Source: an uncultured Oscillospiraceae bacterium (GTDB taxonomy: Bacteria > Bacillota > Clostridia > Oscillospirales > Oscillospiraceae). Taken from it: a DNA stretch of 64,000 nt. Positions 2,865 to 64,000 of this stretch are shown here, piece after piece. The notes under the pieces are model-generated. The model did no database searches and had not been told where the DNA came from. It worked only from the letters and a program-made list of their open reading frames with translations. Position 1 is the stretch's first letter; each line of letters begins with the position of its first letter. The DNA is taken from NCBI GenBank assembly GCA_934589185.1, contig CAKTNQ010000001.1, positions 35,433 through 99,432 on the forward strand, written 5' to 3'. A program made the position numbers and the translations under genes.

Positions 2865-2904
2865 AACGGCGCCCCGGACAGAGATAAAAGTCCGGGGCGC
2901 CGTT
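2865..2904 (+). terminator. perfect 15-bp stem hairpin after lysR (no U-tract)
   Basis: aacggcgccccggac (2865-2879) pairs with gtccggggcgccgtt (2890-2904). No T-run follows, so terminator efficiency is uncertain. Confidence 0.5.
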
Positions 2905-3156
2905 CATATGTCGTGCATGATTTGTCCATATTCAGTTTATAAACAGTAAAACAAACTGCCAAAGACAGCGTGAGAGGGGACACATAAATTGTCAATTACG
3001 ACTATTTATAAGCATTTACTAATCGACTTTGATAATTTTTTGATTTTACATATAAGTAAAATGCAATGTATCCTGTACATGCAAAAAGCTGACTGGTCGT
3101 ATCGTCGCCGACTGGTATTCGGGCACGATACGGGAAAATCGCAAATCGAAAGCGAG

Positions 3157-3492: not shown

Positions 3493-3518
3493 TTTAGAGA
3501 AAAGGAAGGACCACTACG

Positions 3519-3926: not shown

Positions 3927-3941
3927 GAATGAGGTCTGTAA

Positions 3942-5096: not shown

Positions 5097-5106
5097 TAGT
5101 AAAAAA

Positions 5107-5142
5107 CAGCGAGGAGGAAATGTGCACATTTTTTCCTCGCTG
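5107..5142 (+). promoter_or_regulatory. long intra-operon hairpin between gcdB and the CoA-transferase gene
   Basis: cagcgaggaggaaatgtg / cacattttttcctcgctg form an ~18-bp stem (two G-U pairs) around a TGCA centre. An A-run precedes it and no U-run follows on the plus strand. Confidence 0.5.
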
Positions 5143-5194
5143 AAATGCGATTCAACCGGAAACGGCATTGTTTCAGTTTCAAAGGAGATATATT

Positions 5195-6406: not shown

Positions 6407-6446
6407 TAATCATACACGGTTTATACGAAACAGATTGGAGAATGTT

Positions 6447-9884: not shown

Positions 9885-11423
9885 TTATTTCTTATTTATG
9901 TTTTCGCAAAACGCTGTCAGGATGGCGGCGGTCTGCTCGCGCGTGGCGCTGCCCTGCGGGCTCAGCCGGGCAGTGCCGCTGCCGTCGTCCGTACCGGAGA
10001 TCAGCCCGAGCGCGACCGCATCCGCCAGCGCGTCCCGCGCCCAGCCGGATACGCTGCCGCTGTCCGGGAAGCGGCTCAGGTCCGCGGGCGTCCACGTGCG
10101 CGCCAGCTTCAGGACCCGGCTTGCATATTCCATGAGCAGAACGGCGAGCTGTTCACGCGTTACCGGCGCGTCGGGCGCGAAGGTCGTCTCGCTCGTCCCG
10201 ACCACGACGCCGGTCTGATAGGCCCAGAGAACTGCGTCCTTGTACCAGTCCTGTGTCAGATCCGTAAACGGCATGGTGCCGGTGGCCTTCGGCTCGCCCG
10301 CAAGATTATAGAGGATCTGCACGACCTGCGCGCGTGTGGTCGTGGCCTTCGGGGCAAAGCGGCCGCCACCGACGCCGGACATCAGCCCGCCGCGCACGCA
10401 GAAGTCAATGCCCGGATGCGCCCAGTTGTCGGGCGCCGGGACGTCCGTCAGGCCTTTGCTGGAGCAGGGTGGTGCGGGGATGGTCTCCGTTCTGGCTGCG
10501 CCGCAGCGCGTGCACGTATAGCGCAGCACACCGTCGCCCGCACAGCTCGCCTGTTTGACCACTGTTCCGCCGTCCCAGGTGTGCTCACCGCCGAGCGGGC
10601 GCAGGGGCTGGGTCACGGATGCGCCGCAGCCGCTGCACGTGTAGACGTTCCGGCCAAAGTCCGTGCACGTCAGCGCGATGTGCTCCGTGATCTGATAATC
10701 ATGCGTGTGGTCCGCGCGCAGCGACGCGCCATACCGTAGGTCAATGTCTACGTTCGCCTGGATGCCGGGGATGCGACCGGTGTTGCAGGTCTGCCATGTG
10801 CTGTAGCTGCCGCCGTAGCCGGTCTCGGCTGCCCAGACGGCGAGCCAGCGGTCCCACCGGTCATAGGTGGGGTCATCCAGCGTGGTCGTCCACCAGTAGC
10901 GGTTGGCGTAAACGCCGACCGAATAGCCCGCGGCCTGCAGCGTCTCGCAGAAGATGGTCACGTGGCGCAGGACCTCGGCCTTCGTGCAGTTGTCGCGGAT
11001 GCCGCTGTCCTCCAGGTCAATGTACACCGGCAGCTGCGGGTGTTTGCCGTCGAGCAGACGCAGAGCGTGCGCGGCCTCGCTGCGTGCGTCTGCGTCGGTC
11101 CGTGCGAGGGAGTACAGATACACGCCGTACGGGATGCCGAGCCGCTCGCATGCAGCGGTGTTGACAGCCCACTTCGTGTCGTCCTGCGCGGTCAGGTCGC
11201 TGCCGCGGCCGCAGCGGATGATGGCGAAGTCAATATACTGCGCCGTCGTATCCCAATCGATCGCACCTTGAAACTGGCTGACGTCGATGCCGGCGCCCGT
11301 GATCTGCTCTCCGGCGGAGAGCACAGCGGGGGACGCCGCGTCCTCCGCCGGGAGCTGCACGGCGGCGGCGCTGCCGGTCAGCAGGGCGCATAGAAGTAAG
11401 ATGGAAAGCAGTCTTTTTCGCAT
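9885..11423 (-). CDS. secreted GH25 muramidase (lysozyme) with two 4-Cys modules and C-terminal SLH domains
   Basis: ORF 9885-11516, start moved to ATG 11423 (GGAGGA SD). Signal peptide MRKRLLSILLLCALLTGSAAA. GH25 block GIDVSQFQGAIDWDTTAQYIDFAIIRCG. Cys-rich YTCSGCG / YTCTRCG modules. SLH repeats (FTDV..W..., RFAP..TTTRAQVVQILYNLAG). Confidence 0.85.
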   Translation of the reverse strand: MRKRLLSILLLCALLTGSAAAVQLPAEDAASPAVLSAGEQITGAGIDVSQFQGAIDWDTTAQYIDFAIIRCGRGSDLTAQDDTKWAVNTAACERLGIPYGVYLYSLARTDADARSEAAHALRLLDGKHPQLPVYIDLEDSGIRDNCTKAEVLRHVTIFCETLQAAGYSVGVYANRYWWTTTLDDPTYDRWDRWLAVWAAETGYGGSYSTWQTCNTGRIPGIQANVDIDLRYGASLRADHTHDYQITEHIALTCTDFGRNVYTCSGCGASVTQPLRPLGGEHTWDGGTVVKQASCAGDGVLRYTCTRCGAARTETIPAPPCSSKGLTDVPAPDNWAHPGIDFCVRGGLMSGVGGGRFAPKATTTRAQVVQILYNLAGEPKATGTMPFTDLTQDWYKDAVLWAYQTGVVVGTSETTFAPDAPVTREQLAVLLMEYASRVLKLARTWTPADLSRFPDSGSVSGWARDALADAVALGLISGTDDGSGTARLSPQGSATREQTAAILTAFCENINKK

Positions 11424-11512
11424 AATATTCCTCCGATCTGATGGACGTTTGTGGTTCGCCTTCCATTGTAAGACCAAACGCCGGAAAAGGCAACCGCAGA
11501 TGCAGGAAAGAA

Positions 11513-11544
11513 ACACGGCGCTCTGCTGCAGCAGAGCGCCGTGT
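11513..11544 (-). terminator. purA terminator (32-nt perfect palindrome)
   Basis: ACACGGCGCTCTGCTG/CAGCAGAGCGCCGTGT, followed on the minus strand by UUCUUUCC. Confidence 0.7.
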
Positions 11545-41327: not shown

Positions 41328-42176
41328 ATGCACCGCATTGCGTCCTGCGCGCCGTATTTGCCGCGGCGCGCGTCCGATACCAACAAATATGACTATGGCC
41401 GCGTGCTCATTGTCGGCGGCTGCGTCGGCTACACCGGCGCGCCGACGCTGTGCGCCCGCGCGGCTCTGCGCTGCGGCGCCGGATTGGTGTCCGTCGGCGT
41501 GCCGGAGGCGATCTATGCCGTCACCGCCGTGAAAAACGATGAGGCGATGCCGTTCCCCTTGCCGTCGGCGGAGGGGAAGCTGGCGCGCGACGCCTTGCCG
41601 GAGCTGCTCGCGCGGCTGCAAAAGAGCGACGTGTGCGTGCTCGGTCCCGGTCTGGGGCGCAGCGATGCGCTCACGGCGCTGGTGCAGGCGGTCGTTACGC
41701 AGTCCGGCACGCCGCTCGTGCTCGATGCCGACGCGCTCTTTGCCGTCGCGCAGGACGTGACGGTGCTCGACCGCGCCCGCGCGCCCATCGTGCTCACGCC
41801 GCACGACGGGGAGTTTGCCCGGCTGGCCGGGCCGGATGCAGCCGGCAGGGCAGAGGCGGCGTCCAATTTTGCCGTCCGGCACGGCTGCACGGTCGTGCGC
41901 AAGGGGCCGGAGACGGTCTGCGCGTTCCCGGACGGGGACGCGGCGGTGCTGCGTGCCGGCAATCCCGGTATGGCCAAGGGCGGCAGCGGCGACGTGCTGG
42001 CGGGCATGCTCGGCGCGCTGCTGTGCCAGATGCCTGCGCGCGACGCGGTGCAGACCGCCGTCTGGCTGCACGGCCGGGCGGGCGACCTCTGCGCCGGGCG
42101 CATGGGCGAATATGCGATGAACCCGACCGATGTGATCGCGGCCCTGCCGGAGGTCACAAAACCCATCATCCGATAG
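41328..42176 (+). CDS. nnrD: ADP-dependent NAD(P)H-hydrate dehydratase (YjeF C-terminal type)
   Basis: Start placed at ATG 41328 inside ORF 40932-42176. KYDYGRVLIVGGCVGYTGAP and GMAKGGSGDVLAG motifs. Promoter TTGACG-17-TATAAT at 41257-41285. Confidence 0.85.
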   Translation: MHRIASCAPYLPRRASDTNKYDYGRVLIVGGCVGYTGAPTLCARAALRCGAGLVSVGVPEAIYAVTAVKNDEAMPFPLPSAEGKLARDALPELLARLQKSDVCVLGPGLGRSDALTALVQAVVTQSGTPLVLDADALFAVAQDVTVLDRARAPIVLTPHDGEFARLAGPDAAGRAEAASNFAVRHGCTVVRKGPETVCAFPDGDAAVLRAGNPGMAKGGSGDVLAGMLGALLCQMPARDAVQTAVWLHGRAGDLCAGRMGEYAMNPTDVIAALPEVTKPIIR

Positions 42177-42184
42177 GAGGCAGT

Positions 42185-42787
42185 ATGCAGCGCAGAGCGA
42201 TCGCTGCACTGATGATAAGCCTGCTGCTGTTGTCCGCGTGCGGACACGGCGCGGGAGAGCAGACATTCGAAGCCTTTCGTGACACGCTCATGGGCAAATT
42301 CGTCACCACGACGGCGCAGGTGCGCGTCCAGCGCGGCGACACGGTCACGGACTATACGCTCACCTGTCAGGAGCTGCCGGACGGCTATGACCTCACGGTC
42401 ACGGCACCGGAACAGGCGGCCGGCGTCACGGCCCACCTGCGCGACGGAGCAAGCACGCTTGCCTTTGACGACATCATCCTCCCGGCGGGCGATCTCAACG
42501 GCGCGGGCCTGACGCCGCTGACGGCGCTGCCCTATGTGGTGGAGGCCGTCCGCAGCGGCTATGTCGACCTGACGTGGACGGAGGACGGGCTGCAGGTCGT
42601 GCAGCTCATCACGGACGATCATACCGCCGTGCGTCTGTATCTGGACGGCACGGTGCCGCAGTGCGCGGAGCTGTCGGTTGACGACACGCTCTGTCTGCGC
42701 TGCACCATAGAAAACTGGAATCTGGAACAAGGAAGTACGAACGATGAATCGCAAGATCAGAACCTGGGTAGAGATCAGTCTCAATGA
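42185..42787 (+). CDS. lipoprotein of unknown function
   Basis: In-frame ATG 42185 within ORF 41633-42787, with AGGAGG SD at 42175-42180. Lipobox LLLSAC (MQRRAIAALMISLLLLSACGHG). It overlaps the alr start by 44 nt. Confidence 0.6.
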   Translation: MQRRAIAALMISLLLLSACGHGAGEQTFEAFRDTLMGKFVTTTAQVRVQRGDTVTDYTLTCQELPDGYDLTVTAPEQAAGVTAHLRDGASTLAFDDIILPAGDLNGAGLTPLTALPYVVEAVRSGYVDLTWTEDGLQVVQLITDDHTAVRLYLDGTVPQCAELSVDDTLCLRCTIENWNLEQGSTNDESQDQNLGRDQSQ

Positions 42788-43859
42788 CTTGGAACACAAT
42801 TATCGCGAGATCAGCAGCCGCCTGCCGGACGGCTGCCAGATGCTCGGCGTCTGCAAGGCCAATGCCTACGGCCACGGCGCGGTGCGCGTGGCGCAGCGGC
42901 TGCAGCGGGCGGGCTGTCAATGGGTGGCCGTCAACTGCTATGACGAGGCCGAGGAGCTGCGCGCCGCCGGCGTGACGATGAACATCCTGCTGCTCGGCCC
43001 GCAGTCGGCGAATATCGCGGTCGATCTGGCCACGCTCGGCGTGACGCAGGCGGTCGGCAGCATCGAATATGCACGCGAGCTCAACCGCTTTCTCGCCGGT
43101 ACCGGCCTGCGGCTGGACGCGCACATGAAGCTCGAGACCGGCATGGGCCGCACCGGCTTTGATGTGCACGACGACAGCCACCTCGACGAGATGATCGAGG
43201 CGCTCTCACTGCCGCACCTGAACTTCACGGGCGTGTTCACGCACTTTGCCGTCTCGGACGAGAACGGAGATCCGTACACACAGCTGCAGTTTTCGCGCTT
43301 TACGCACGCGATCGAGCGCATGGAGCAGGCGACCGGCCACCACTTCGCCATCCGTCACTGCGCCAACAGCGGTGCTGTCATTAATTATCCCGAGATGCAC
43401 CTCGACATGGTGCGCCCCGGCCTGCTGCTCTACGGCGTGTTCCCGGCCAAAGAGACCGGCGGGCTTGACCTGCGCCCGGCCATGTCGCTCTACAGCCGCG
43501 TGTCCGAGGTGACGCACCACCATGCGGGCGACACGATCAGCTACGGCCGCACGTTCACCTGCCCGCGCGATATGCGCCTGGCCGTGCTGCCTGTCGGTTA
43601 CGCCGACGGGCTGCTGCGCAGCCTCTCCGGCAAGGGTGATGTGCTGCTGCACGGTAAGCGCGCGCCGCAGGTCGGCCGCATCTGCATGGATATGTGCATG
43701 GTCGATGTTACGGACATCCCCGATGTGCAGCCCGGCGACGTGGCCACGATCTTTGGCCGTGACCTCTCGGTGGCCGAGCAGGCGGACAAGGCCGGCACTA
43801 TCCCGTATGAGCTGCTGTGTGCCATGAGTCAGCGCGTGCAGCGCGTGTATATCGACTGA
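42744..43859 (+). CDS. alr: alanine racemase
   Basis: 371 aa. PLP-Lys block LGVCKANAYGHG. C-terminal PYELLCAMSQRVQRVY. Confidence 0.95.
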   Translation: MNRKIRTWVEISLNDLEHNYREISSRLPDGCQMLGVCKANAYGHGAVRVAQRLQRAGCQWVAVNCYDEAEELRAAGVTMNILLLGPQSANIAVDLATLGVTQAVGSIEYARELNRFLAGTGLRLDAHMKLETGMGRTGFDVHDDSHLDEMIEALSLPHLNFTGVFTHFAVSDENGDPYTQLQFSRFTHAIERMEQATGHHFAIRHCANSGAVINYPEMHLDMVRPGLLLYGVFPAKETGGLDLRPAMSLYSRVSEVTHHHAGDTISYGRTFTCPRDMRLAVLPVGYADGLLRSLSGKGDVLLHGKRAPQVGRICMDMCMVDVTDIPDVQPGDVATIFGRDLSVAEQADKAGTIPYELLCAMSQRVQRVYID

Positions 43860-43941
43860 AGTATAAATTTCGCTCCGATGGCGAAAATAACTGTGCCCCT
43901 ACATATCAACCGGGGCAAATATTCCATCGGAGATGAAATCT

Positions 43942-44292
43942 ATGAATCCAGTTCGACGCGGAGATATTTATTATGCCGACCTCAGTCCGGTGGTCGGCAG
44001 CGAGCAGGGCGGCATGCGTCCCGTGCTCATCATTCAGAACGACACCGGCAACCGCCACAGCCCGACGGTGATCGCTGCCGCGATCACGTCGCAGACCGGC
44101 AAGGCCAACCTGCCCACGCACATCTCGCTCGCAGCGCGCAGCTGCGGCCTGACGCGCGACAGCGTGATCCTGCTCGAGCAGGTGCGCACGCTCGATAAGT
44201 CGCGCCTGCGCGAGCGCATGGGCCGCCTGGACGAGCCTGCGATGCATCAGGTGGACAACGCGATCGCCGTGAGCTTTGGCCTGCCGCAGTAA
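43942..44292 (+). CDS. mazF: MazF/EndoA (PemK-family) mRNA interferase toxin
   Basis: [51 protein letters not shown]...THISL...[15 protein letters not shown] is nearly collinear with B. subtilis EndoA. ORF track start is 43933; I prefer ATG 43942 (GGAG at 43929-43932, 9-nt spacing). Confidence 0.9.
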
Positions 44293-49829: not shown

Positions 49830-52265
49830 TCAGCGTTTCAGGCTGAAATTCAGCAAAATGACCGGAACAAGCCATAAGCCCATGTACACAAAGAGGTTGC
49901 CGACGGTGGCGGAATCGAACGCGCCGATGGCGCACAGGGCGAACATCAGCACGACGCCGATGACCGTGCACAGCAGGGCAAGGATGACGCAGATGCGCAC
50001 GGTGGAGTAGAGCTGGCGGCCGAGATTGGCGACGCTCACGAGCGGGCCGAGCCCGTCGCGCGCCACGATGCCGGCGGTCTGCGTATAGTCGGACGGTTCC
50101 GCTGCCGACATGGCATAGCGCTTGCGGTAGGCCGGGAAGTCAAAGCCGTCGGTCGACATCTTGAACTTCTGCCCGAGCATCAGCGGCGTGATGTTGAAGT
50201 CGCGCACGGCAAAGATCGGCGCGATCTTTGTACGCAGCAGAGCAAAGAGCGCGTTCTGCACCGACTGCACCGGCACGTACTTGATCTTGAAGCTTGCGAC
50301 AAACAGACCGTTGATGGATGTGAACACGACGTTTTTGGCGCTCAGCTGCTGCGGCAGATGCACGCCCTTGAGGTTCATGAAGGCGCTGCTGCCGACGAGC
50401 ACTTCCTCGCCGTTGACGAGGGCGCTCAGGCCGCCGCTTTCGTTGCAGGTGAAGGCTTCGACCGGCATGAGCGTGCAGTTGTTGCGCTGCATGAGATCGG
50501 TAAACGCGGTGGCAAGGCAGCTGCCGGAGGCAACGATCACGCTGCCGGTGTAGGAGATGACCTTGTCCGGGAACGCGCCGTCGAGGATGCGAATGTCCTC
50601 GATTGAGATGTTGCGCGCGGTGAACAGGTCCTTATCCGTGACGATCAGGTGCTTGCTGCGGCCGATATCGCTCGCGCCGCTCCAGCCCGCGATGGCGCTG
50701 CCGGTGCGGGCGAGCTTGCGCGCAGCGGTCCGGAACGGGACGGCGAACGCCACAAGCGCCGCAAACGGCGCGCACGGCGCGGTGACGGCGGCAAACACGT
50801 GCAGGATGTTGGCATAATTGCCGCTGAGGATCGTGGCCAGCAGGCCGAGGATCACGGACGCGGCGATCAGATACGGCGCGAGCGCGGCGTAGATCGTGTC
50901 GGCCGGGCCGGCCTCCTCGCTGCGGTGGATGAAGCCCGCGGTGTCGCGCTTGGACTTGAGCACGGTGATGCTGTCCTTGACGACCTCGCTGTCCGCGCTG
51001 ACGGTGTAGGGATCATTGTCGACCGCGAGCGTGCGGAACGTGGACTTGAAGCCGCGGCAGGTGTTCAGCGCGCTCCACAGGCAGCAGGCCACGGAAAACG
51101 CCGACACGGCGCAAAACGGCAGACCGACGGCGTCCGACCCTGTAATGGCCAGCACGACCGCATCGAGCGCGGAAAAGACGCAGTTGAGAAACACGAGCGA
51201 TTCCAGCCCCGGCGTGCGGCGCACGAGGTTGAAAAAGCCGTTGGTGATGACGTCCAGACCGATGAGCATCACGGTCAGCTGCATCATCAGGCACACGAGC
51301 GCTGCGACGGACGGGCTGCTCTTGAGCACACCGAACACCGGCAGCCCGAGCGAGATGTAGATCAGCGGGATGCACACGATCATGGCCGCCCGGCAGCGGA
51401 AGCGCAGGGACTTGACCTGCCCGCCGTAGTATTTTGCAGCGGTTTCGGCATCCGGCTCCGGGCCAAGCTCCTCCTCGGTGTTGGCCGAGGCGTGCACGGC
51501 GCTGTTGTGTTCGCGGATACGGTAGGCCACGGCGGCGAGCCGCGCCATGAGCGGGTTGAGCACCGCGTCCTGAAAGCTGCGGCGCGCAGGGCCGTCTGCA
51601 CCGTCGTCCGCGGCGTAGTCGCCGGCGCGGGCGTAAGCGGTGCGCCCGGCCGCGCTGTCGTCCATGCCTTCTTCCGTCACGGCCTGAAACACGCGCGTCG
51701 GCTCTTCCGGTTCCGGTTCCGGGTCATACAGGCCCTCCGGCACCTCCGGCGGGGCGGAGACGGGGATGGCGGTGTCTTCCTCCAGAGGTTCTTCCTCCGG
51801 CTGGACCGGCTCATCCGGCACGACATCCGAGATCTTCGAGGCAAAACGCTTCAGTCCCGAGATGCCTTTTTTGGCCAGACGCTTGGCGTTGGCCTTCGTC
51901 TCGTTCCACTTTTCGATCTCTTCTTCGGTCGCGTGGTCGCGCTGGCGCTTCGGCTGATAGCGCTTGACATCGTGATCCTCATGCGGCGGTTCATCAGGCG
52001 CGGCCGTTCCGGTCTCCGGGGCCGTGTCCTCCAGTGCGCTGTCGAGCTCGGCGGACATGAGAATGTCCTCAGCCTCGGCGTCCTCGGCTGCATCTTCCTC
52101 GACCATCTCCGCCTTGACGGGGCGGCGGGGATAGGCCGGCTGCGGGCGGGGCGCGGGTGCGTCCGTCTGAAAATCTTTATATTCGTCCAGAATGGATTCC
52201 AGGGAGAATTCTTCTGCGTCCAGGTCAAAAGAAACGTCCTCTGGCGAGCGATCAAATTGGTCCAT
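49830..52265 (-). CDS. P1B-type ATPase-like polytopic membrane protein lacking catalytic motifs, with ~290-aa acidic disordered N-terminus
   Basis: 811 aa. The TM/A/P/N-domain order resembles heavy-metal P-type ATPases (APCAPF in place of CPC). DKTGT is replaced by DKDLFT (plus 50619-50636). No TGES, SEHP or GDGxNDxP equivalents were recognisable. Confidence 0.55.
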   Translation of the reverse strand: MDQFDRSPEDVSFDLDAEEFSLESILDEYKDFQTDAPAPRPQPAYPRRPVKAEMVEEDAAEDAEAEDILMSAELDSALEDTAPETGTAAPDEPPHEDHDVKRYQPKRQRDHATEEEIEKWNETKANAKRLAKKGISGLKRFASKISDVVPDEPVQPEEEPLEEDTAIPVSAPPEVPEGLYDPEPEPEEPTRVFQAVTEEGMDDSAAGRTAYARAGDYAADDGADGPARRSFQDAVLNPLMARLAAVAYRIREHNSAVHASANTEEELGPEPDAETAAKYYGGQVKSLRFRCRAAMIVCIPLIYISLGLPVFGVLKSSPSVAALVCLMMQLTVMLIGLDVITNGFFNLVRRTPGLESLVFLNCVFSALDAVVLAITGSDAVGLPFCAVSAFSVACCLWSALNTCRGFKSTFRTLAVDNDPYTVSADSEVVKDSITVLKSKRDTAGFIHRSEEAGPADTIYAALAPYLIAASVILGLLATILSGNYANILHVFAAVTAPCAPFAALVAFAVPFRTAARKLARTGSAIAGWSGASDIGRSKHLIVTDKDLFTARNISIEDIRILDGAFPDKVISYTGSVIVASGSCLATAFTDLMQRNNCTLMPVEAFTCNESGGLSALVNGEEVLVGSSAFMNLKGVHLPQQLSAKNVVFTSINGLFVASFKIKYVPVQSVQNALFALLRTKIAPIFAVRDFNITPLMLGQKFKMSTDGFDFPAYRKRYAMSAAEPSDYTQTAGIVARDGLGPLVSVANLGRQLYSTVRICVILALLCTVIGVVLMFALCAIGAFDSATVGNLFVYMGLWLVPVILLNFSLKR

Positions 52266-55236: not shown

Positions 55237-55257
55237 CCCGCACCACCGTATTTTACG

Positions 55258-55292
55258 CGCCGCACCCAATACCGGGTGCGGCGTGTTTTTTT
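55258..55292 (+). terminator. rho-independent terminator
   Basis: cgccgcaccc-aatacc-gggtgcggcg plus T7. Confidence 0.75.
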
Positions 55293-55328: not shown

Positions 55329-55358
55329 TTGACACGCCGGGGAGCACCATTGTATAAT
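55329..55358 (+). promoter_or_regulatory. strong sigma70-type promoter ahead of the surface-protein locus
   Basis: TTGACA (55329-55334), 18-nt spacer, TATAAT (55353-55358) preceded by TG. This predicts a ~210-nt leader to ATG 55576. Confidence 0.55.
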
Positions 55359-55575: not shown

Positions 55576-58500
55576 ATGCAGCAATTATTCAAACGGATGC
55601 TGTCGGTGCTCCTGGCGGCCGCCGTCCTGCTGTCGCTGACGGTGACGGCGTTCGCGGCCGACGGCGGCGCGGACACGGCGCTCACGGCGGCGGATTATGC
55701 CGCTGCGGACGCGTTGTTCGACGCGCTCGATGGCGTGGAGCAGGAAGCGGTGCGGCGGGATGCGTCCACAGACGGGCGCACACAGACCATCTGCGACTAT
55801 CTCAACGCGCAGGACACGGTCGTATCCGGCTCGGTCGAGACGAGCGGCGACCAGATCACCTGGATGACGGAGCAGGGCATTGCCTGCGCCTATTCCCCGC
55901 GTCTGGAGCAGATCGCGGCGGCGGCAGAGTCTACGGCCGACGATACGCCCGACGTGCAGACGCGCACCTACGCCGCGCGCGGCACGCAGCACGGGCGCGA
56001 TGTGTACCTGTTCCAGCCGTACTACGGCATTGACCGCAGCTTCACCGAGCAGTACCAGAAGGAGGCCCAGCGCGTGGCGCAGGCGTCCGAGGGCACGTAT
56101 CACTACTACAAGGGCGAAGCGGCGACGATCGACGCCATTGCGGATGCGATCACGGACGGCGGCCTTGTCATCTTCGACTCGCACGGCTCGACGGATTATG
56201 AAAACGGTGAGGACTACACCTCCGGTGCTACGACGTCCTACCTCTGCCTGCAGACGGGCGACGGCCTGACCAAGGCAGACTATGATGACGGACACGCCGT
56301 CTACAGCAGCTCGAGCAGCAGCATGAAATATTTCCTCGTGGACGGTACGGTCATCGCCGATCATATGGACGCCGATGCGCAGGCCAACAATGGCCTGCTC
56401 TGGATGGCGATCTGCCTCGGCATGGCGACCGACGGTCTGGAAAAGCCGCTCATGGATCGCGGCCTCGGTGTTGTGTACGGCTACAGCCAGTCGGTCACGT
56501 TCGTTGGTGACTACACGTTTGAGGCCGCATTCTTTGACAGCCTGCTCGGCGGCAGCACCGTCGCTGAGGCGGTCCGTGATATGAAGGCGACCTGCGGCGC
56601 GTGGGACTGCTCGCCGCAGATCTGCCAGGCCAACGGTATGCCCAGCAGCTATCAGATGACGACGCTGGAGGCAGCGCAGCGCGGCCGCGCCGCGTTCCCG
56701 GTCGTCGTCTCCGCGGACGATACCTATCCAGGCCATGGCAATGTCGACGCGCTGCAGAATGTCAACTCCGGTTGGGCGCTGCTCGACCGCTATGCTCTGA
56801 CGGCAGACACCGACACGCCGGAGTATGGCTCCGTGACGCAGCGGGGCATGACCATCACGGCCAACGCCAACACCGGCTATTACGCCTCCGGCTACACCGT
56901 CACGCCCGAGGGTGCGGCAACGGTGCGTCAGGACGGCGATACCTTCCGCGTTTCCGCGCTGCGGCAGGACTGCAAGGTGACGATCCACTTCGCCGCCAAG
57001 ACGCCGGCGACCGTGCACTTCTCAGTGCCGGGTGGTGTGACGCAGTCGGACGCCGCCGGTTATATCGGCGATCCGATCACGCTCCCGCAGCCGACGGGTA
57101 CGCCCACGGCTGACGCGCAGGACTATCACTTCGTCGGCTGGACGACCGAGCCGGTTAAAACACCGGTCGTGAGCACGCAGGTGCTCCGCGCGGGCGAGCG
57201 CTATGACGTCACGAGTGCGGAGACGACGCTCTACGCGCTCTATCAATACTTTGCCACACCGGATGGCCGGACGCCCGCGTTCTCCGCCGTGACGGCGGAC
57301 ACCGACGACTGGAGCGGGACGTATGTCCTGCGCGGCGGTGACAGCGTCCTGCGCTGCGACGGCGCCGTTTACGGGGCGGCGCTGGGCAGCGCCGCTGCCG
57401 CCGTGCCGCTCGCGAATACCGGCATCACCGTGGACGCGGACGGCAATGTCTCCGGCGTCTCCAGCACGTATACCGTGCAGATTACGCGCGTGCCCGGGAC
57501 GGAGCAGTACACCATCCGGCTCGGCGGCGCAATGTCGTCGGTTTATCTGGCCTGCCGCTCGAACAGCGACCAGCTCAATTCCGCCGTGGACGGCGGCAGC
57601 AGCTATGCCCGCTGGCTCATCAGCTGGCAGGACGGCCATGTTGTCATTCAAAACGCACGCTACATGGCGCGCAGCTTGCAGTTTTGCGCAGATAAGCAAT
57701 ATTTCCGCTGCGTGCGCGGCACCGAGACGCCGCTGACGCTCTATCGCGGCGAAGACAGCGGCCTGTGGTACACCACGCTGCTGCAGTCGGCCCATGTGCA
57801 TCAGTATGTGGAGTCCGCCTGTCAGGCGGCGACCTGCACGGAGCCCGGCTGGGTGGAATATGCCTGCACCGCCTGCGGCAGCACCTACCGCGACACGCTC
57901 AATCCGCTCGGTCATGCGTTCCATGACAAGGCTTCCGCCGTGTGCGCGCAGGCGGCGACCTGCACCGAGCCCGCGCAGTATTTTGTGCAGTGCGACCGCT
58001 GCGATGCTGTTAGTGAGACGCTGACGGTCGTGGCTGGTGATCCGCTCGGTCATGCGTTCCATGACAAGGCTTCCGCCGTGTGCGCACAGGCGGCGACCTG
58101 CACCGAGCCTGCGCAGTATTTTGTGCAGTGCGACCGCTGCGATGTCGTCAGCGAGACGCTGACGGTCGCGGCCGGCGATTCGCTCGGCCACAGCTATGAT
58201 AGAAACGGCGCCTGTGTCCGCTGCGGCGCGCTGATGCCGGTCACACCGTTCGATGACGTTCCGGAGGACGCCTATTATAACGACGCGGTCTATTGGGCCG
58301 TCCGCCGCGGCATCACGAGCGGCGTCGGCGGCAATCGCTTTGCCCCGGACGAAACGTGCACGCGCGCGCAGATCGTGACCTTCCTCTGGAACGTTGCCGG
58401 CAATCCGGAGCCGAAATCCCTGACCGTCCCGTTCGCGGACGTGTCGGCGGACGCTTACTATTACAAGGCCCTGTGCTGGGCGACCGAAAACGAGACCACC

Positions 58501-58770
58501 TACGGCACGAGCGACACAACCTTCTCCCCGGACGGCATCGTGACGCGCTCGCAGGCGGTGGCGCTGATGTGGCGCGTCGCCGGCAGTCCGGATGCCTCCG
58601 CGGACGAGACGTTCACGGACGTTCCGGCGGACGCGTATTACGCGGCTGCGGTGCGCTGGGCCGTTGCAAATGACATCACGGCGGGTACGGGCGGCAACCG
58701 CTTTTCGCCGCTGGCCCCCTGCACACGCGCACAGATCGTTGCGCTTTTGTACAATCAACTGCATGCATGA
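55576..58770 (+). CDS. secreted clan-CD-like cysteine peptidase with Listeria/Bacteroides-type repeat, 4-Cys modules and three C-terminal SLH domains
   Basis: ORF 55561-58770, ATG 55576 after GGAGGA. Signal peptide ...LTVTAFAADG. His/Cys dyad candidates VIFDSHGS and LWMAICLG. YHFVGW...TLYALY repeat. CxxxTCTEPxxYxxCxxC modules. Three SLH repeats (FDDVPEDAYY..., FADVSADAYY..., FTDVPADAYY...). Confidence 0.75.
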   Translation: MQQLFKRMLSVLLAAAVLLSLTVTAFAADGGADTALTAADYAAADALFDALDGVEQEAVRRDASTDGRTQTICDYLNAQDTVVSGSVETSGDQITWMTEQGIACAYSPRLEQIAAAAESTADDTPDVQTRTYAARGTQHGRDVYLFQPYYGIDRSFTEQYQKEAQRVAQASEGTYHYYKGEAATIDAIADAITDGGLVIFDSHGSTDYENGEDYTSGATTSYLCLQTGDGLTKADYDDGHAVYSSSSSSMKYFLVDGTVIADHMDADAQANNGLLWMAICLGMATDGLEKPLMDRGLGVVYGYSQSVTFVGDYTFEAAFFDSLLGGSTVAEAVRDMKATCGAWDCSPQICQANGMPSSYQMTTLEAAQRGRAAFPVVVSADDTYPGHGNVDALQNVNSGWALLDRYALTADTDTPEYGSVTQRGMTITANANTGYYASGYTVTPEGAATVRQDGDTFRVSALRQDCKVTIHFAAKTPATVHFSVPGGVTQSDAAGYIGDPITLPQPTGTPTADAQDYHFVGWTTEPVKTPVVSTQVLRAGERYDVTSAETTLYALYQYFATPDGRTPAFSAVTADTDDWSGTYVLRGGDSVLRCDGAVYGAALGSAAAAVPLANTGITVDADGNVSGVSSTYTVQITRVPGTEQYTIRLGGAMSSVYLACRSNSDQLNSAVDGGSSYARWLISWQDGHVVIQNARYMARSLQFCADKQYFRCVRGTETPLTLYRGEDSGLWYTTLLQSAHVHQYVESACQAATCTEPGWVEYACTACGSTYRDTLNPLGHAFHDKASAVCAQAATCTEPAQYFVQCDRCDAVSETLTVVAGDPLGHAFHDKASAVCAQAATCTEPAQYFVQCDRCDVVSETLTVAAGDSLGHSYDRNGACVRCGALMPVTPFDDVPEDAYYNDAVYWAVRRGITSGVGGNRFAPDETCTRAQIVTFLWNVAGNPEPKSLTVPFADVSADAYYYKALCWATENETTYGTSDTTFSPDGIVTRSQAVALMWRVAGSPDASADETFTDVPADAYYAAAVRWAVANDITAGTGGNRFSPLAPCTRAQIVALLYNQLHA
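57904..58179 (+). repeat. tandem 138-bp (46-codon) duplication inside the peptidase gene
   Basis: Copies at 57904-58041 and 58042-58179 differ at a handful of positions (PLGHAFHDKASAVCAQAATCTEPAQYFVQCDRCDA/VVSETLTVV/AAGD). Confidence 0.85.
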
Positions 58771-58877
58771 TATGCCGGAACCGGCCGGCGGAAAGGGAAG
58801 GTGAGGCCTACACACAGACTCATTGCACTCACAAACCATGTACATACCAATTCATTTCAGGAGGTAATGACCAACCC

Positions 58878-61800
58878 ATGAACAAGACAATCACCAAACG
58901 GCTCCTGTCTCTGGTGCTGCTGGTGGTCATGCTCGTCGGCTGCGCGCTCCCGGCCTATGCCGTGGACACCGGCGCAAGCGGCGACCTGACCGCAGCGTAT
59001 GCACTCCGGGGCACGGCCTACAAGGACGGCGTCTATGAAGGCACCGGAAAGGGCTTTAAAGACGGCGAGATCAAGGTCAAAGTGACCATCACCGACGGCA
59101 AGATCGCCAAGGTGGAGCTCGTCAGCCAGGAAAAGCAGAGCTATTGGGACTCGAAGAATGTTTCTTCGCTCTTTGACGAGATCGTCAAGGCCAACAGCAC
59201 CGAGATCGACGGCGTTTCCGGCGCGACCATGAGCAGCAACGGTGTCAAGGCTGCGGTCAACGATGCGCTGAGCAAGGCGCTCGTCACCGCGCCTGAGCAG
59301 CCGGGTGGCAGCATCTTTGCCGCCGGCACCGGCGCGAAGTCCGACCCGTATCTGATCCGTACGGTCGATCAGCTCAAGGCGTTCGCGGCCTCGGTCAACG
59401 GCGGTGAGACCTACGCGAGCCAGTACGTCACGCTCGACGCCGATCTTGACCTCACCGGTGAGAGCTGGACGCCGATTGGCGGCGACAACGGCAGCTTCAA
59501 CGGCATCTTCAACGGCGACAACCACACGATCGCCGGCCTGGCCATCGGCACGAAGGCCGAGTCCGCCGCGTGTGCGTATGCCGGCCTCTTCGGCCTTGTC
59601 GGCCAGGGCGGCGCGATTCGCAATCTGGGTGTCAAGGATGCGTTTATCAACAACAAAACCACAGATGAAGACCCTGCGGTCGGCATTCTGGCGGCGGCTA
59701 CCGGCGAGAGCAGCGTGATCGACGGCTGCTGGGTCAGCGGCACGATCGTTAGTGATGCGGCCGGTGACAATAACTACACCTACGTCGGCGGTGTTGTCGG
59801 CAACGGCGGCGGCAAGAGCCTGGTGTGCAACACCTGGGCGGACGTGCAGATCGCGGCCAAGGGCAGCGATACCGGCGCGGGCGGCATCGTCGGCTGGACG
59901 AGCAACGATTCCGCGGTCATCAACTGCGCGGCATTCGGCACGATCGGCAACTACTGCGACGGCTCCATGATGTACGGCGCAGGCGGCATCGTCGGCTACA
60001 GCTGCGGCGCGATCTACGCCTGCTACTCCGACGTGACCCTGCACATGGACGCCATGTCCGATGCGGGCGACGGCTCCGATGTGCCAATCGGCGGCATTGC
60101 CGGTTCTCCGGCGGCACTCACGGCGGCCTATCGCTGCTGGTTCAACGCTGACGCGGCGCAGACCTACTACGGCGATGAAGCGGTGGCGGAGCCGGTCGCG
60201 GTCGGCTATGACATGCTCAACTACTCTGTCAGCGATCAGGAGGAGTGCGCCGGTCTGACTTCGGCAGAGCTCACCTCCGGCGTGCTGGCGACGAAGCTTG
60301 CCGACGCGCTCACGGAGGAAAAGCTTGCCGATGCGCAGGCGTATTTCTCCGACAAGGCGGTTGGCCTGCTGGGCAACGGCGTTACGATGAACAGCCTGCT
60401 GAGCATGAGCGAAAACGGCTGGAACAGCTGGCAGGTCGAAAACGGCCGCCTGCTGCCGACCGGTGAGGGCAGCAATCAGCCCGTCGACCCGAGCGATTTC
60501 TTCGCCGGCGGCGAGGGCACGCAGGCCGATCCCTATCGCATCGAGACCGAGGCGCAGCTGCGCGGATTCGCAGAGGCCACCCAGAGCGGCAAGCTCAGCA
60601 CCACGAACCTGTACATCCGGCTCGACGCCGATATCGCGCTCTCGGAAGAGGCGTGGACGCCGATCGCCAAGTTTGGCGGCAGCTTTGACGGCGACGGCCA
60701 CACCGTCTCCGGCATGACCATCGGCACGAGTGCGCAGCCGTCGGAGCGCACCTCCGCCGGTTTCTTCGAGACGCTGGCAAACGGCGCGTCGGTCAGCAAC
60801 CTCAAGCTGACGGACGTCTCGGTCAACGTCGCGCGCACGGGCAGCAGCCTCGATGATGCGGTCTATGCCGGCGGTCTCGTCGGCGGCGGCCAGACCATGG
60901 GCGCCGACGTCCGCATCGACAACTGCTCGGTCACGGGCGGCACCATTTCCGCGTCCTCCGGCATGCACGTGTACGCGGGCGGCCTTGCTGCCAGACTCGG
61001 CGGGACCAACTACGTCACCAACTGCTATGCAGATATCGACATCACGGCGGCAAGCAGCAAGTATGTTGCCAGCGCCGGCGGCCTTGTCGGCACGTTCGGC
61101 AGCAGCAGCTTCGTCGGCAACTGCGCCGCGCTCGGCGCTGTCGCCGCCAGCGGCAACAGCCAGGAGTATAACAGAGTCAGAGCGGGCGGCCTGCTGGCTT
61201 CGGCCCCGTTCCTGACTGAAAACTGCTACGCTTCCGGCAATGTCACCCTGACGAATGCCAGCAGCGACTATGACGCCTATGCCGGCACGCTCATCGGAGA
61301 GCAGAGCGGCAGCGCCGTCGTGGACAGCCACTACAGCAGCAAGGCGGTGCTCACCGTCAACGGCGAGAGCAAGGACCTCATCGCAGTCGGCAAGACGCCC
61401 AGCAGCTGGTACAGCGGCATCAACTACAATAAGATCACGGCGCAGGACGACGTCACGAACGACGCCTTTGCTGCCGTCCTGAATCAGGGCATCTCCGCCG
61501 AGGGTCTCGCCGCGACGGATGAATACCTCATCAACAGCGGCAAGTTCTCCGGCTACACGGCCGAGGGCCTTGCGGCCATGCGTCCGGCAGTCTGGCAGAG
61601 ATGGGGCGCTGCCGACGGTAAGGTCCTGCCCGGCGTGAAGGCCAAGAGCATCTTTGCCTCCGGCACCGGCACCAAGGACGATCCCTTCGTCATCGAGACG
61701 GAGGCGCAGCTGCGCGCGTTTGCCGCCTCCACCATCGGCGACAATGCGGTCGACTACGCGGGCCAGTATATCGCGCTCGACGCGGACATCACCCTCAACG

Positions 61801-64000
61801 GCGCGTGGACGCCCATCCACTACTTCGCCGGCAGCTTTGACGGCCGCGGCCACACCGTCTCCGGTGTGCGCATCGGCACCGAGCTTGCGCCGCTCGAGCA
61901 GAGCAGCGTCGGCTTCTTCGACGTGCTTTCAAACGGTTCCAGCCTCGCAAACTTGCACCTGACCAACGTTGCCGTGTACGGCAAGCTCACCGGGGACTGG
62001 GATCGTCCGTTTGTCGGCGGTCTGGTCGGCGGCTCGCTCGGCATGGGCAAGAATGCACGCATCGATCACTGCTCCGTCGCCGGCGGCATTGTCAGCGCGG
62101 AGGGCAGGCAGTGGGCATATGGCGGCGGCCTGACCGCGTCGCTTTATCTCGATGCCTATCTCACCAACTCCTGGACGGATGTGACCGTGCAGGTCAAGTC
62201 CGCCAACGGCCTGTGCTCGGCCGGCGGCCTCGTTGCCACGAACTCCAACGGCACCATGATCGCCAACTGCGCCGCCCTCGGCGGTGTGACGGCCATCTCG
62301 GGCTACACGACCTCTTCCAAGGTCAGTGCCTCCGTCGGCGGTCTCGTCGGCCAGGGGACCGGCATGTTCCACAACTGCTACGCTGCCGGCAATGTCGCGC
62401 TGACAATGGCCATCACGCCGGATGAACCGGCTGTGGGCAGCCTCATCGGCCAGATGTCCACGAGCCGCAGCTACAATGGCATCGTCACCGACTGCTACTA
62501 CAACAGCAAGGCCACCGTGACCGTCAACGGCACGGCCGGCACTGCGGTTGCCTTCGGCGATCTTGTCAGCGACGACACGAACAACGTCGCCGGTGCGGAC
62601 ACGTCCAGCGCCGCCTTTGCCGACACCATGAACCGCGGTCTCACGGTCGAGGGCCTCGCCGCCACAGACAAGTTCCTTACGAGCAATGACATCGGCTTCA
62701 CGACCGATATGCTCATTGCCATGCGTCCTGCCGCGTGGTACGGCTGGGAAGTGCGCAACGGCAAGACTGTGCTCGGCGCGGACGTCTTTGTCCAGCCCGA
62801 CGCGCCGGTGCTCGACTTCTTCGAGCGCGGCTCCGGCACGGAGGCCGACCCCTGGGTCATCCAAAACCTTGACCAGCTCAAGGCGTTTGCGGCCTCGTTT
62901 GCAAAGACGGATTACTCCGGCAAATACATCGTCCTCGGCGCGGACATTGACCTCGCCGGCGAAGCCTGGACGCCGATCGGCCACATGGCCAACGGCACGC
63001 AGGCCTTCCGCGGCAGCTTCGACGGCCAGGGTCACAAGATCTCCAACATGACCATCGGCAGCAAGGCCGCCCCGGTCGGCGCGGAAGCGCGCATTTACTT
63101 CGGCCTGTTCGCGGCGCTCATGAACGGCTCCGTCGTGGAAAACCTCGGCCTGGAGAACGTCAACGTCCACCTCACGGCCGATAAAGAGTCCGCTATCGGT
63201 GGCGCACTGGCCGGCTGCTGCGATCTTGCCGTCATCAACAACTGCTGGGCGACCGGTGACATCACCGCGCGCACCGAAGACGGCAGCTACGCCAACAACA
63301 GCTTCGCCGGCGGCCTGATTGGCTACAGTCAGCGCAGCTACATCCTCAATTCCTGGACCGACGTAACGCTGGACGCCTTCTGCAAGACGGCCAACGCCGA
63401 GGCCGGCGGCATCACTGCCATGAACGCCTTCGGCATGATCGTCAACTGCTACACGCTCGGCGACATCTCCGGTGAGACCGACCGCGAGAATGTGGACGAC
63501 GGTGGCGTGACCTACCTCGGCGGCATCGCTGGCTGCCAGGCCGGCACCATTGCCAACTGCTACACCACCAGCAATCTCACCTCCCGCAGCTGGACGCGCT
63601 ATGTCGGCGCCATCGCCGGTATGGCCACCGCCATCAGCGAGAGCTACGACACCTACTTCAGCGACGGCGCGCGGCTGACCATCAAGGATCAGACGTTTGA
63701 CCCGCCGGTCGCGTTCGGCAGCCAGGTCCCGTCCGGCTACAATGAGGACGGCGAATTCATGAACGGCTCGTTTGTCAGCAACGTTGAGGCGCTCCCGGCC
63801 GGGGACATGACCGCGCAGGCGCTCGCCGACAAGCTCAACGGCAACTTCGGCGCGTTCCCGATCTCCGAGGACGATCTGCCCGCTGCGCTGCGCACCTGGA
63901 CGATCCAGAACGGCGCCGTCGTGTTCGGCACCGGCACCGCGAGCATTACCTATGTCCCGGTCGAGCGTCCGGATCCGAGCATCAACTATGATTACAAGGA
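58878..64000 (+). CDS. giant secreted/lipoprotein: N-terminal FMN-binding domain plus at least 4 GLUG-motif modules (3' end outside the window)
   Basis: Open frame from ATG 58878 (AGGAGG at 58858-58863) to the window end; it is not in the ORF track because no stop is reached. Signal peptide MNKTITKRLLSLVLLVVMLVGC(lipobox)ALPAYA. FMN_bind-like domain with EIDGVSGATMSS. Repeated GGLVG/GGIVG (GLUG) motifs. Confidence 0.85.
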   Translation, partial: MNKTITKRLLSLVLLVVMLVGCALPAYAVDTGASGDLTAAYALRGTAYKDGVYEGTGKGFKDGEIKVKVTITDGKIAKVELVSQEKQSYWDSKNVSSLFDEIVKANSTEIDGVSGATMSSNGVKAAVNDALSKALVTAPEQPGGSIFAAGTGAKSDPYLIRTVDQLKAFAASVNGGETYASQYVTLDADLDLTGESWTPIGGDNGSFNGIFNGDNHTIAGLAIGTKAESAACAYAGLFGLVGQGGAIRNLGVKDAFINNKTTDEDPAVGILAAATGESSVIDGCWVSGTIVSDAAGDNNYTYVGGVVGNGGGKSLVCNTWADVQIAAKGSDTGAGGIVGWTSNDSAVINCAAFGTIGNYCDGSMMYGAGGIVGYSCGAIYACYSDVTLHMDAMSDAGDGSDVPIGGIAGSPAALTAAYRCWFNADAAQTYYGDEAVAEPVAVGYDMLNYSVSDQEECAGLTSAELTSGVLATKLADALTEEKLADAQAYFSDKAVGLLGNGVTMNSLLSMSENGWNSWQVENGRLLPTGEGSNQPVDPSDFFAGGEGTQADPYRIETEAQLRGFAEATQSGKLSTTNLYIRLDADIALSEEAWTPIAKFGGSFDGDGHTVSGMTIGTSAQPSERTSAGFFETLANGASVSNLKLTDVSVNVARTGSSLDDAVYAGGLVGGGQTMGADVRIDNCSVTGGTISASSGMHVYAGGLAARLGGTNYVTNCYADIDITAASSKYVASAGGLVGTFGSSSFVGNCAALGAVAASGNSQEYNRVRAGGLLASAPFLTENCYASGNVTLTNASSDYDAYAGTLIGEQSGSAVVDSHYSSKAVLTVNGESKDLIAVGKTPSSWYSGINYNKITAQDDVTNDAFAAVLNQGISAEGLAATDEYLINSGKFSGYTAEGLAAMRPAVWQRWGAADGKVLPGVKAKSIFASGTGTKDDPFVIETEAQLRAFAASTIGDNAVDYAGQYIALDADITLNGAWTPIHYFAGSFDGRGHTVSGVRIGTELAPLEQSSVGFFDVLSNGSSLANLHLTNVAVYGKLTGDWDRPFVGGLVGGSLGMGKNARIDHCSVAGGIVSAEGRQWAYGGGLTASLYLDAYLTNSWTDVTVQVKSANGLCSAGGLVATNSNGTMIANCAALGGVTAISGYTTSSKVSASVGGLVGQGTGMFHNCYAAGNVALTMAITPDEPAVGSLIGQMSTSRSYNGIVTDCYYNSKATVTVNGTAGTAVAFGDLVSDDTNNVAGADTSSAAFADTMNRGLTVEGLAATDKFLTSNDIGFTTDMLIAMRPAAWYGWEVRNGKTVLGADVFVQPDAPVLDFFERGSGTEADPWVIQNLDQLKAFAASFAKTDYSGKYIVLGADIDLAGEAWTPIGHMANGTQAFRGSFDGQGHKISNMTIGSKAAPVGAEARIYFGLFAALMNGSVVENLGLENVNVHLTADKESAIGGALAGCCDLAVINNCWATGDITARTEDGSYANNSFAGGLIGYSQRSYILNSWTDVTLDAFCKTANAEAGGITAMNAFGMIVNCYTLGDISGETDRENVDDGGVTYLGGIAGCQAGTIANCYTTSNLTSRSWTRYVGAIAGMATAISESYDTYFSDGARLTIKDQTFDPPVAFGSQVPSGYNEDGEFMNGSFVSNVEALPAGDMTAQALADKLNGNFGAFPISEDDLPAALRTWTIQNGAVVFGTGTASITYVPVERPDPSINYDYK
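59010..59285 (+). other. FMN-binding (flavinylation-type) domain within the giant protein
   Basis: GVYEGTGKGFKDGEIKVKVTITDGKIAKVELVSQ...EIDGVSGATMSSNGVKAAVNDAL. The Dxx(S/T)GA(T/S) flavinylation motif has its Thr codon at 59226-59228. Confidence 0.7.
59307..64000 (+). repeat. four tandem ~390-aa protein modules (divergent at DNA level)
   Basis: Modules start at 59307, 60495, 61647 and 62814. Each opens with G(T/S)G.xxDP(Y/F/W).I.T..QL.(A/G)FA and closes with a W..(W/R).(V/I).NG...(P/L)G-type tail. Confidence 0.75.

Follow-up and report, generated by a model that had tools for sequence, protein, structure and literature searches.

A conserved family of giant FMN_bind–β-helix–SLH surface proteins in gut Clostridia, predicted to be flavinylated by ApbE at a single site

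What would a single covalently bound flavin do at one end of a surface protein whose scaffold runs to some 2,000 residues? ApbE-dependent flavinylation is the main route by which Gram-positive bacteria obtain extracellular redox cofactors. The question is raised by a locus in a stretch of 64,000 nucleotides from an uncultured human-gut Oscillospiraceae bacterium (assembly GCA_934589185.1, contig CAKTNQ010000001.1, positions 35,433 to 99,432 of the forward strand; hereafter the window), in which the 5′ part of a gene for a giant protein, uniting an FMN_bind domain (FMN, flavin mononucleotide) with tandem β-helix modules, lies directly downstream of a gene for a secreted SLH protein (the partner; coordinates in Table 1). 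A preliminary description, made from the letters of the window, suggested that the giant protein could be an extracellular electron-transfer (EET) or flavin-scavenging appendage, of a kind believed to be undescribed. The analysis reported here finds a conserved flavinylation site in a widespread protein family; the electron-transfer role is unproven.

The evidence supports the N-terminal domain as a genuine FMN_bind domain of the ApbE type, its acceptor threonine conserved. It matches Pfam FMN_bind (PF04205) over residues 63–132 at 52.1 bits, well over the gathering score of 22, is also matched by a hidden Markov model (HMM) built from the family's own FMN_bind domains, and resembles flavinylated FMN_bind structures in sequence (E = 2e-8). 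Its DGVSGAT segment bears out the Dxx(S/T)GA(T/S) motif that the preliminary description had proposed, with the acceptor codon at the same position. An AlphaFold2 model of residues 30–545, built with 24 family sequences (predicted local distance difference test score, pLDDT, 86.3; predicted template-modelling score, pTM, 0.77), places in order an α/β FMN_bind domain, a disordered six-residue linker, a right-handed β-helix and a small helical/hairpin tail. In Foldseek searches of the PDB the modelled FMN_bind domain resembles domain 2 of SaFMN3 (8p2a; template-modelling (TM) score 0.82, root-mean-square deviation (rmsd) 1.8 Å, 35% identity) and domain 1 of CbFMN4, the 8p2a/8p2b comparisons ranging over TM 0.81–0.82, rmsd 1.8–2.2 Å and 29–35% identity. 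The 82 distinct N-terminal copies in the family share the consensus D-x-[VI]-[ST]-G-A-T-x-S-[SC], with GAT in at least 80%; the rare variants SKAT and SSAT retain the acceptor threonine, as do all variants among the 40 commonest. The acceptor threonine and GAT-x-S are the best-conserved part of this domain across family members 26–99% identical to the query. Since the motif is near-fixed in the N-terminal copy, fully decayed in an internal paralogue (see below) and retained at identities down to 26%, it is read here as a functional modification site, and the predicted flavinylation of the giant protein at Thr117 is well supported by the conservation of the motif, by the fold match to experimentally flavinylated domains and by the position of the gene directly upstream of apbE in Desulforamulus (see below).

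The internal paralogue came to light in the full-length counterpart of the protein. The frame runs from 58878 to the window's end at 64000 as 1,707 codons without a stop, as had been claimed, and a database protein of 2,517 residues (P0001) is 99% identical to it, with 9 substitutions over the shared 1,707 residues. The C-terminal domains were read from P0001 and lie outside the window: beyond module 4 come an FMN_bind-like copy, a fifth module, two CHB_HEX_C_1/Fn3_assoc domains and three SLH domains (3 stretches, 99.8 bits, the best-scoring at 2345–2386), the last supplying the kind of anchor that the preliminary description had suggested looking for. The second FMN_bind-like copy is a paralogue of the first (30% identity, E = 3e-10) that reads NASDGTTDD at the flavin site and has no acceptor; it begins at the window's end and so could not be seen in the earlier reading. 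With the HMM from the family's own FMN_bind domains, an internal copy was found in 44 of 107 family proteins, in long and short clades alike, and none of the 44 has a [ST]GA[TS] site; acidic loops or deletions stand where the motif would be. The giant protein thus has one intact flavinylation motif, not two or more.

In place of a reductase or cytochrome partner, the FMN_bind domain is followed by β-helical modules, as the preliminary description had held; the full-length protein has no FAD_binding_2 domain. The four modules described from the window, with the same starts, align over about 390 residues with 32–34% identity to the first and 58 invariant columns, far beyond chance, and the full-length protein adds the fifth. 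Their assignment to β-helical GLUG repeats of the immunoglobulin A (IgA)-protease type holds, with one qualification. Pfam Glug (PF07581) gave no match at E ≤ 0.01 on the whole window protein, and module-by-module scans gave 27.9, 20.1, 15.9 and 11.3 bits (cutoff 20.5, which module 3 alone passes), but close homologues carry the PF07581 annotation and the structural comparisons uphold the β-helix. A profile of the four modules finds 3n6z (BACOVA_03286, a "putative IgA1 protease" consisting of the β-helix only) at E = 7.8e-20 and the β-helical N-terminal domain of pneumococcal IgA1 protease (6xjb) at E = 2e-5; the modelled module, a confident right-handed β-helix, retrieves 3n6z in Foldseek (E = 1.5e-10, TM 0.69). 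When 24 diverse family members are compared, Gly, Asn, Pro and hydrophobics make up most of the unvarying module positions, and within the β-helix Asp, Glu, His, Cys, Ser and Lys are never invariant; the lack of invariant catalytic-type residues points to a scaffold or binding role for the modules rather than catalysis. In IgA1 protease the homologous β-helix is a protein-binding module, which binds the IgA1 Fab and gates the active site (PMC7695701), and M26_N-type β-helices of ambiguous function have been noted as tip domains in predicted fibrillar adhesins (PMC9210967). Identity as an M26 IgA1 protease was rejected, as the 2,517-residue protein contains no HExxH and has no Peptidase_M26_C match, and identity as a multihaem cytochrome was rejected likewise, as it contains no CxxCH; it is neither.

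The combination is no rarity; it proved to be widespread. In the homologue search, 108 of the best 120 clusters have FMN_bind together with this module, most of them also SLH, under database names, where given, of "FMN-binding protein" or "uncharacterized protein, contains FMN-binding domain". A HMMER search of 1.84 billion representatives returned 704 proteins at E ≤ 1e-30; in 64 of the best 150 matches (a hand count from the aligned stretches) one best alignment covers FMN_bind and more than 220 β-helix residues, so the architecture occurs in at least 64 clusters at 50% identity, cultured carriers included. The family is abundant in Clostridia of the human gut and the rumen, with two clusters at 90% identity holding 2,618 and 2,820 member sequences. 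In a scan of species-representative genomes, the closest match (91%) was an uncultured Oscillospiraceae metagenome-assembled genome (MAG) from Hadza gut samples, followed by Dysosmobacter (55% identity to the query), Faecousia intestinalis CLA-AA-H192 (54%), Desulforamulus aeronauticus DSM 10349 (38%), Ruminococcus flavefaciens FD-1 and MA2007 (36%) and Pseudobutyrivibrio sp. ACV-2 (34%). Members of a long Oscillospiraceae clade have five modules, about 2,350–2,550 residues and a lipobox-type cysteine; those of a short clade have three modules, mostly about 1,500–1,800 residues and a plain AxA signal peptide, with SLH, fn3, dockerin or no recognised domain as anchor. The claim that the architecture is undescribed held in the literature searched: flavinylation surveys, an ApbE review and full-text searches for GLUG with FMN gave no description of it (PMC8238504, PMC11334425, PMC12052999). 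Other homologues include an FMN_bind unit fused to a dockerin (P0099), a subtilase fusion with two FMN_bind domains (P0111) and a nine-site multi-flavinylated protein (P0113), which illustrate how freely FMN_bind has recombined among surface proteins.

The clades differ in how the flavin end of the protein would be held. The N-terminus (MNKTITKRLLSLVLLVVMLVGCALPAYA), read directly from the sequence rather than by a dedicated predictor, has the n-h-c layout of a signal peptide and both of the features that matter here, a lipobox-type LVGC (Cys22), which fits [LVI][ASTVI][GAS]C, and an AYA (AxA) type I cleavage site 5 residues downstream; the signal peptide and lipobox of the preliminary description are both present. 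All 11 long-clade genome loci whose N-terminus could be identified have the lipobox-type cysteine, which is absent from the short clade; in the wider family, plain AxA signal peptides prevail and the cysteine is also missing in two long-clade members. To judge from this residue, a lipid anchor probably holds the N-terminus in the Oscillospiraceae clade, as in PplA of Listeria. The flavin domain had been called membrane-proximal, which is plausible for this gene given the conserved lipobox and is no trait of the family, because Cys22 is confined to the Oscillospiraceae clade, the placement hinges on its lipidation, and the certain anchor, SLH, lies at the opposite, C-terminal end.

Genomic context links some family members to flavinylation. 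An ApbE HMM was made from a recurrent lipoprotein cluster in the relatives' loci, confirmed against solved FAD:protein FMN transferases (FAD, flavin adenine dinucleotide; E = 3.8e-59), and was run with a NapH-like HMM on all stop-to-stop open reading frames (ORFs) of at least 120 residues in 85 loci and the window. Around 52 loci with FMN_bind-only proteins, ApbE lay within 10 kb in 32 and a NapH-like gene in 39; around 31 loci with the giant architecture plus the window, ApbE lay within 10 kb in 2, and there was no convincing NapH-like gene (two marginal matches, E about 1e-4). The two are Desulforamulus aeronauticus DSM 10349 (L018, 9518–16843) and a Desulfotomaculum MAG (L017), in which apbE (PF02424, 295.8 bits), a NusG_II gene and a PF07456 gene come after the giant gene on its own strand, the trio starting within 30–90 bp of it. 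PF07456 is the EetB family, an ECF-S subunit that exports FAD for extracytosolic flavinylation; eetB is co-localised with apbE in 2,169 genomes and with eetA in 3,328 (PMC9973259). This apparent Desulfotomaculia operon is a flavinylation kit with the giant protein as its sole visible substrate and no membrane electron-transfer module. ApbE turns up often in loci of related Oscillospiraceae, Ruminococcus, Butyricicoccus and Lachnospiraceae, and is absent from a 26-kb stretch of a related contig (L001), about 16 kb of which extends past the window. A short-clade relative (L007) has, 8 kb upstream of its giant gene, a gene (1673–3478) combining FMN_bind with FAD_binding_2, a fumarate-reductase-like extracellular flavoprotein; this organism therefore probably runs ApbE-type flavinylation. 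An Rfam scan of the window found three tRNAs only, with no FMN riboswitch or other cis-regulatory RNA.

The one specific recurrent neighbour is of another kind. Clustering of neighbours across the 31 loci singled out an SLH protein of 965–1,291 residues, which lies directly upstream in 10 of 10 close-clade loci with upstream sequence (50–60% identical over 750 residues) and is absent from short-clade loci of Ruminococcus, Lachnospiraceae and Desulfotomaculia; a database protein of 1,064 residues (P0121) is 99% identical to the partner, whose family numbers more than 800 clusters. A strong intrinsic-terminator-like hairpin (55255–55286; 13 bp, 10 GC, T-run) precedes a perfect sigma-70 consensus promoter-like sequence 43 nt downstream of it, ahead of the partner gene, and the 107-nt spacer between the two genes has no convincing terminator, an arrangement that makes a two-gene operon likely. 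The N-terminal 750 residues of the partner match no Pfam family over threshold (best CHAT, E = 0.019), and a PDB sequence search gave nothing useful. Its AlphaFold2 model (pLDDT 86) resembles, in Foldseek, SAVED-CHAT (8tl0, E = 3e-6), separase and HA33-type β-trefoils; the family alignment has an invariant Ser-His-Gly and an invariant Cys, 2–3 Cys-rich repeats of about 45 residues follow (AVCAQAATCTEPAQYFVQCDRCD), and the SLH domains match Pfam. The label "SLH peptidase" given to this upstream gene in the preliminary description is thus a reasonable one, resting on the CHAT/separase-like, caspase-type model together with the invariant Ser-His-Gly and Cys in a conserved partner: the protein is a predicted peptidase, probably co-transcribed with the giant gene.

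We put at about 0.5 the probability that the giant protein is a Sec-exported envelope protein, flavinylated by ApbE at Thr117, whose wall-fixed β-helical scaffold displays the flavin as a surface redox relay. The protein would be exported through Sec with the signal, FMN_bind domain, four modules, the copy without a flavin site, the fifth module, two CHB_HEX_C_1/Fn3_assoc domains and three SLH domains in that order; the SLH domains would tie its C-terminus to a cell-wall polymer, and an ApbE encoded elsewhere in the genome would attach FMN to Thr117 by a phosphoester bond after export. The outcome would be a lone flavin, unable to diffuse, on a long scaffold of β-helices; the modules would bind protein or glycan and would not be enzymes. 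The flavin could then act as a surface-tethered, one-site redox relay, taking electrons from membrane-side donors or diffusible shuttles and handing them on to acceptors, soluble or bound, at the cell surface, O2 possibly among them. In the Oscillospiraceae form the lipidated flavin end would sit at the membrane, and the protein would bridge membrane and wall; a short-clade flavin domain would instead lie at the unattached far end of its protein.

Several observations weigh against a redox relay. A five-module fibre is tens of nanometres long, too far for one flavin to bridge, and most N-termini in the family lack the lipobox, which would leave the flavin domain far from both the wall anchor and the membrane. 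The FMN_bind fold can be retained for a non-redox reason, as the conserved second copy without the motif shows. The 64-kb window, annotated from related contigs and by direct Pfam scans of nearly all called genes, has no ApbE, Ndh2, EetA/B, DmkA, Rnf or NapH-like gene; Pfam finds no Ndh2, Rnf, NapH or DmkA within 10 kb in five relatives, and apbE is missing within 10 kb in 29 of the 31 family loci. The Listeria-type EET gene set (ndh2, dmkA/B, eetA/B, fmnA/B, pplA) was likewise not found in the window or in the 10-kb surroundings of the five relatives. With no apbE, Ndh2, NapH-like or EetAB gene in the window or near most relatives, the EET role proposed in the preliminary description remains conjecture. 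No donor or acceptor genes are linked, and one flavin does not conduct along the fibre; any redox role would need diffusible shuttles or a membrane-side donor.

Two other accounts draw on the same observations. The giant protein might be the substrate-capture arm of a two-gene surface proteolysis system in which the flavin domain is accessory, its modules binding a host or dietary glycoprotein such as IgA or mucin and presenting it to the partner, or the partner processing the giant protein. The constancy of the partner, directly upstream in all ten close-clade loci at 50–60% identity over 750 residues, speaks for this, as do the single consensus promoter with no intervening terminator, the partner's invariant His-Gly and Cys on a modelled CHAT/separase-like fold with a β-trefoil lectin fold, and the IgA1 Fab binding and active-site gating by the homologous β-helix of IgA1 protease (PMC7695701). 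Short-clade loci, however, retain the FMN_bind–β-helix core without the partner, the strong conservation of the flavinylation motif is left unexplained, and the partner's peptidase activity is a prediction (its Pfam CHAT match, E = 0.019, falls below threshold); we consider this account unlikely, though it can coexist with a flavin relay. The protein might also be a plain S-layer-associated adhesin or structural fibre in which FMN_bind is a cap or spacer, unflavinylated or irrelevant, and the motif a leftover. Such a fibre would suit the stable retention of a motif-less copy in 44 family members, the lack of electron-transfer genes nearby, the occurrence of M26_N-type β-helices at predicted fibrillar-adhesin tips (PMC9210967) and the few N-terminal copies in which a motif G is replaced by S or K. 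Against it, a motif that was a leftover would have decayed as that of the internal copy has, the acceptor threonine and GAT-x-S are the most conserved residues of the N-terminal domain across 26–99% identity, and in Desulfotomaculia the gene shares one operon with apbE and eetB; the motif conservation and this operon disfavour the plain adhesin, which we regard as quite unlikely.

The preliminary description had also offered a flavin-scavenging or storage appendage, capturing free flavins of the gut lumen. Many gut Firmicutes are flavin auxotrophs, a general point in favour of scavenging. The motif is a site of covalent attachment, however, and for that reason the proposal is rejected: the ApbE phosphoester site uses FAD and the FMN is irreversibly bound (PMC10339131, PMC12052999), one site per 2,517 residues would make a poor scavenger, and no flavin importer genes adjoin the giant gene. 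We hold it to be highly improbable.

The core FMN_bind(+)-[β-helix]n-FMN_bind(-)-β-helix might represent a new functional class of ApbE substrate, a cytochrome-free wall fibre that couples ligand binding to electron exchange, a proposal that we offer as speculative and rather doubtful. The macromolecular ligand would be a host glycoprotein, plant fibre or mineral surface. Diffusible shuttles would supply the single tethered flavin or, where the Oscillospiraceae protein is lipidated, it would be supplied directly at the membrane. Just as speculatively, the dead FMN_bind copy might dock free flavin, or the live domain of an adjacent molecule.

Table 1. Features of the giant-protein locus (positions are those of the window; aa, amino acids).
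Feature	Position	Strand	Remarks
Promoter-like TTGACA-18-TATAAT	55329..55358	+	12/12 match; probable operon start
Partner gene, 1,064-aa secreted protein	55576..58770	+	predicted caspase/CHAT-like (clan CD) fold, β-trefoil, Cys-rich repeats, three SLH
Ribosome-binding site GGAGG	58860..58864	+	13 nt ahead of ATG 58878
Giant FMN_bind–β-helix–SLH surface protein gene, 5′ 68% (1,707/2,517 codons)	58878..64000	+	continues past window end
Signal peptide, aa 1–28	58878..58961	+	LVGC at 58932-58943 (Cys22), then AYA type I site
N-terminal FMN_bind domain, aa 36–142	58983..59303	+	Pfam core aa 63–132 = 59064-59273
Flavinylation motif DGVSGAT, aa 111–117	59208..59228	+	predicted FMN acceptor Thr117 at 59226-59228
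β-helix module 1	59307..60494	+	M26-N/3n6z type; small helical and hairpin tail
β-helix module 2	60495..61646	+	
β-helix module 3	61647..62813	+	sole module over Pfam Glug cutoff (27.9 bits)
β-helix module 4	62814..63971	+	
Second, degenerate FMN_bind-like domain, first residues	63972..64000	+	aa 1699–1792 of P0001; remainder past window

The annotated genes of the window are housekeeping genes, including those for purine, cytidine triphosphate, glutamine and asparagine synthesis, phenylalanyl-tRNA synthetase (PheRS), alanine racemase (Alr), MazF, pyrimidine nucleoside phosphorylase, an EF-G paralogue and a SpoU methylase. The MazF/PemK-type toxin gene (43933-44292, + strand; 123 bits) adjoins that for alanine racemase. 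A second SLH protein, with a GH25 muramidase domain and three SLH domains, is encoded at 9885-11516 on the minus strand. Positions 1-8210 hold genes for a CitMHS transporter, a biotin carrier and a carboxyltransferase (a decarboxylase-type cluster) with GC content at third codon positions (GC3) of 0.61–0.66, against 0.77–0.91 elsewhere, a difference that could reflect foreign origin or imperfect gene calls. Two minus-strand ORFs with coding-like GC3 have no Pfam match, one of 811 residues (49830-52265), conserved in the related contig L001, and one of 428 residues (41513-42799).

The giant protein is a predicted ApbE substrate whose fusion partner is new and to which no electron-transfer system is assigned; proteins of this build are common among Clostridia of the gut and rumen. 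Published surveys class ApbE substrates by their membrane electron-transfer partners, and this family, with one conserved flavin site, a huge wall-anchored β-helical scaffold, no obvious donor genes and a retained "dead" copy, fits no such category. Were the flavin redox-active at the surface, it could aid flavin-mediated electron transfer, oxygen scavenging or redox-dependent adhesion in dominant gut anaerobes; were it not, a flavin-binding fold would have been recruited as a structural unit of an adhesin. The family is directly testable, since its carriers include the cultured Faecousia intestinalis, R. flavefaciens FD-1, Pseudobutyrivibrio and Desulforamulus aeronauticus.

In flavinylation surveys, about half of the genomes with ApbE machinery are without a characterised system (PMC8238504, PMC11334425), and the giant protein can be set beside several of the known ones. 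NqrC and RnfG share its Pfam family, its flavinylation chemistry and an N-terminal membrane-proximal hydrophobic segment; the giant protein lies outside any Nqr or Rnf operon and has a giant extracellular extension, and identity with RnfG or NqrC was rejected on NCBIfam equivalog scores of only 19.6 against 205 and 16.5 against 144. PplA of Listeria monocytogenes, a lipoprotein with two FMN_bind domains flavinylated by ApbE/FmnB, is the terminal protein of flavin-based EET; like it, the giant protein of this extracytosolic, Gram-positive Firmicutes setting has a Sec signal with a lipobox-type cysteine and, soon after, FMN_bind with Dxx[ST]GAT, and one relative's operon has apbE and eetB as the Listeria EET locus does (PMC9973259). 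PplA differs in being small and made of FMN_bind domains only, in a locus with Ndh2, DmkA/B and EetA/B, whereas the giant protein has one active and one dead site, about 2,000 residues of β-helix, an SLH anchor and no nearby membrane electron-transfer genes. SLH proteins associated with the S-layer and fibrillar adhesins of Clostridia have the same C-terminal triple SLH, Fn3_assoc/CHB_HEX_C_1 spacers and long repeats, but the literature searched describes a flavinylation domain for none of them.

Among solved structures, those of SaFMN3 and CbFMN4 come nearest to the N-terminal domain (up to TM 0.82 and 35% identity), and they have the SGAT-x-[ST] site in common with it. Those domains carry covalent FMN on the GAT threonine after co-expression with ApbE, and SaFMN3 has a midpoint potential of about −184 mV and reacts with O2 in its reduced form (PMC10339131). 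Proteins of the SaFMN3/CbFMN4 type have 3–13 active flavin domains as a putative wire, with apbE flanking, whereas the giant protein has a single active site and a motif-less second copy. The β-helix modules are homologous to the N-terminal β-helix of the M26 IgA1 metalloproteases (6xja, 6xjb, 7uvk) and to Bacteroides ovatus BACOVA_03286 (3n6z), which share their GGxxG "GLUG" rungs and GTGxxDPYxI cap; unlike the M26 proteases, the giant protein has no M26 catalytic domain, repeats the module five times and pairs it with FMN_bind domains.

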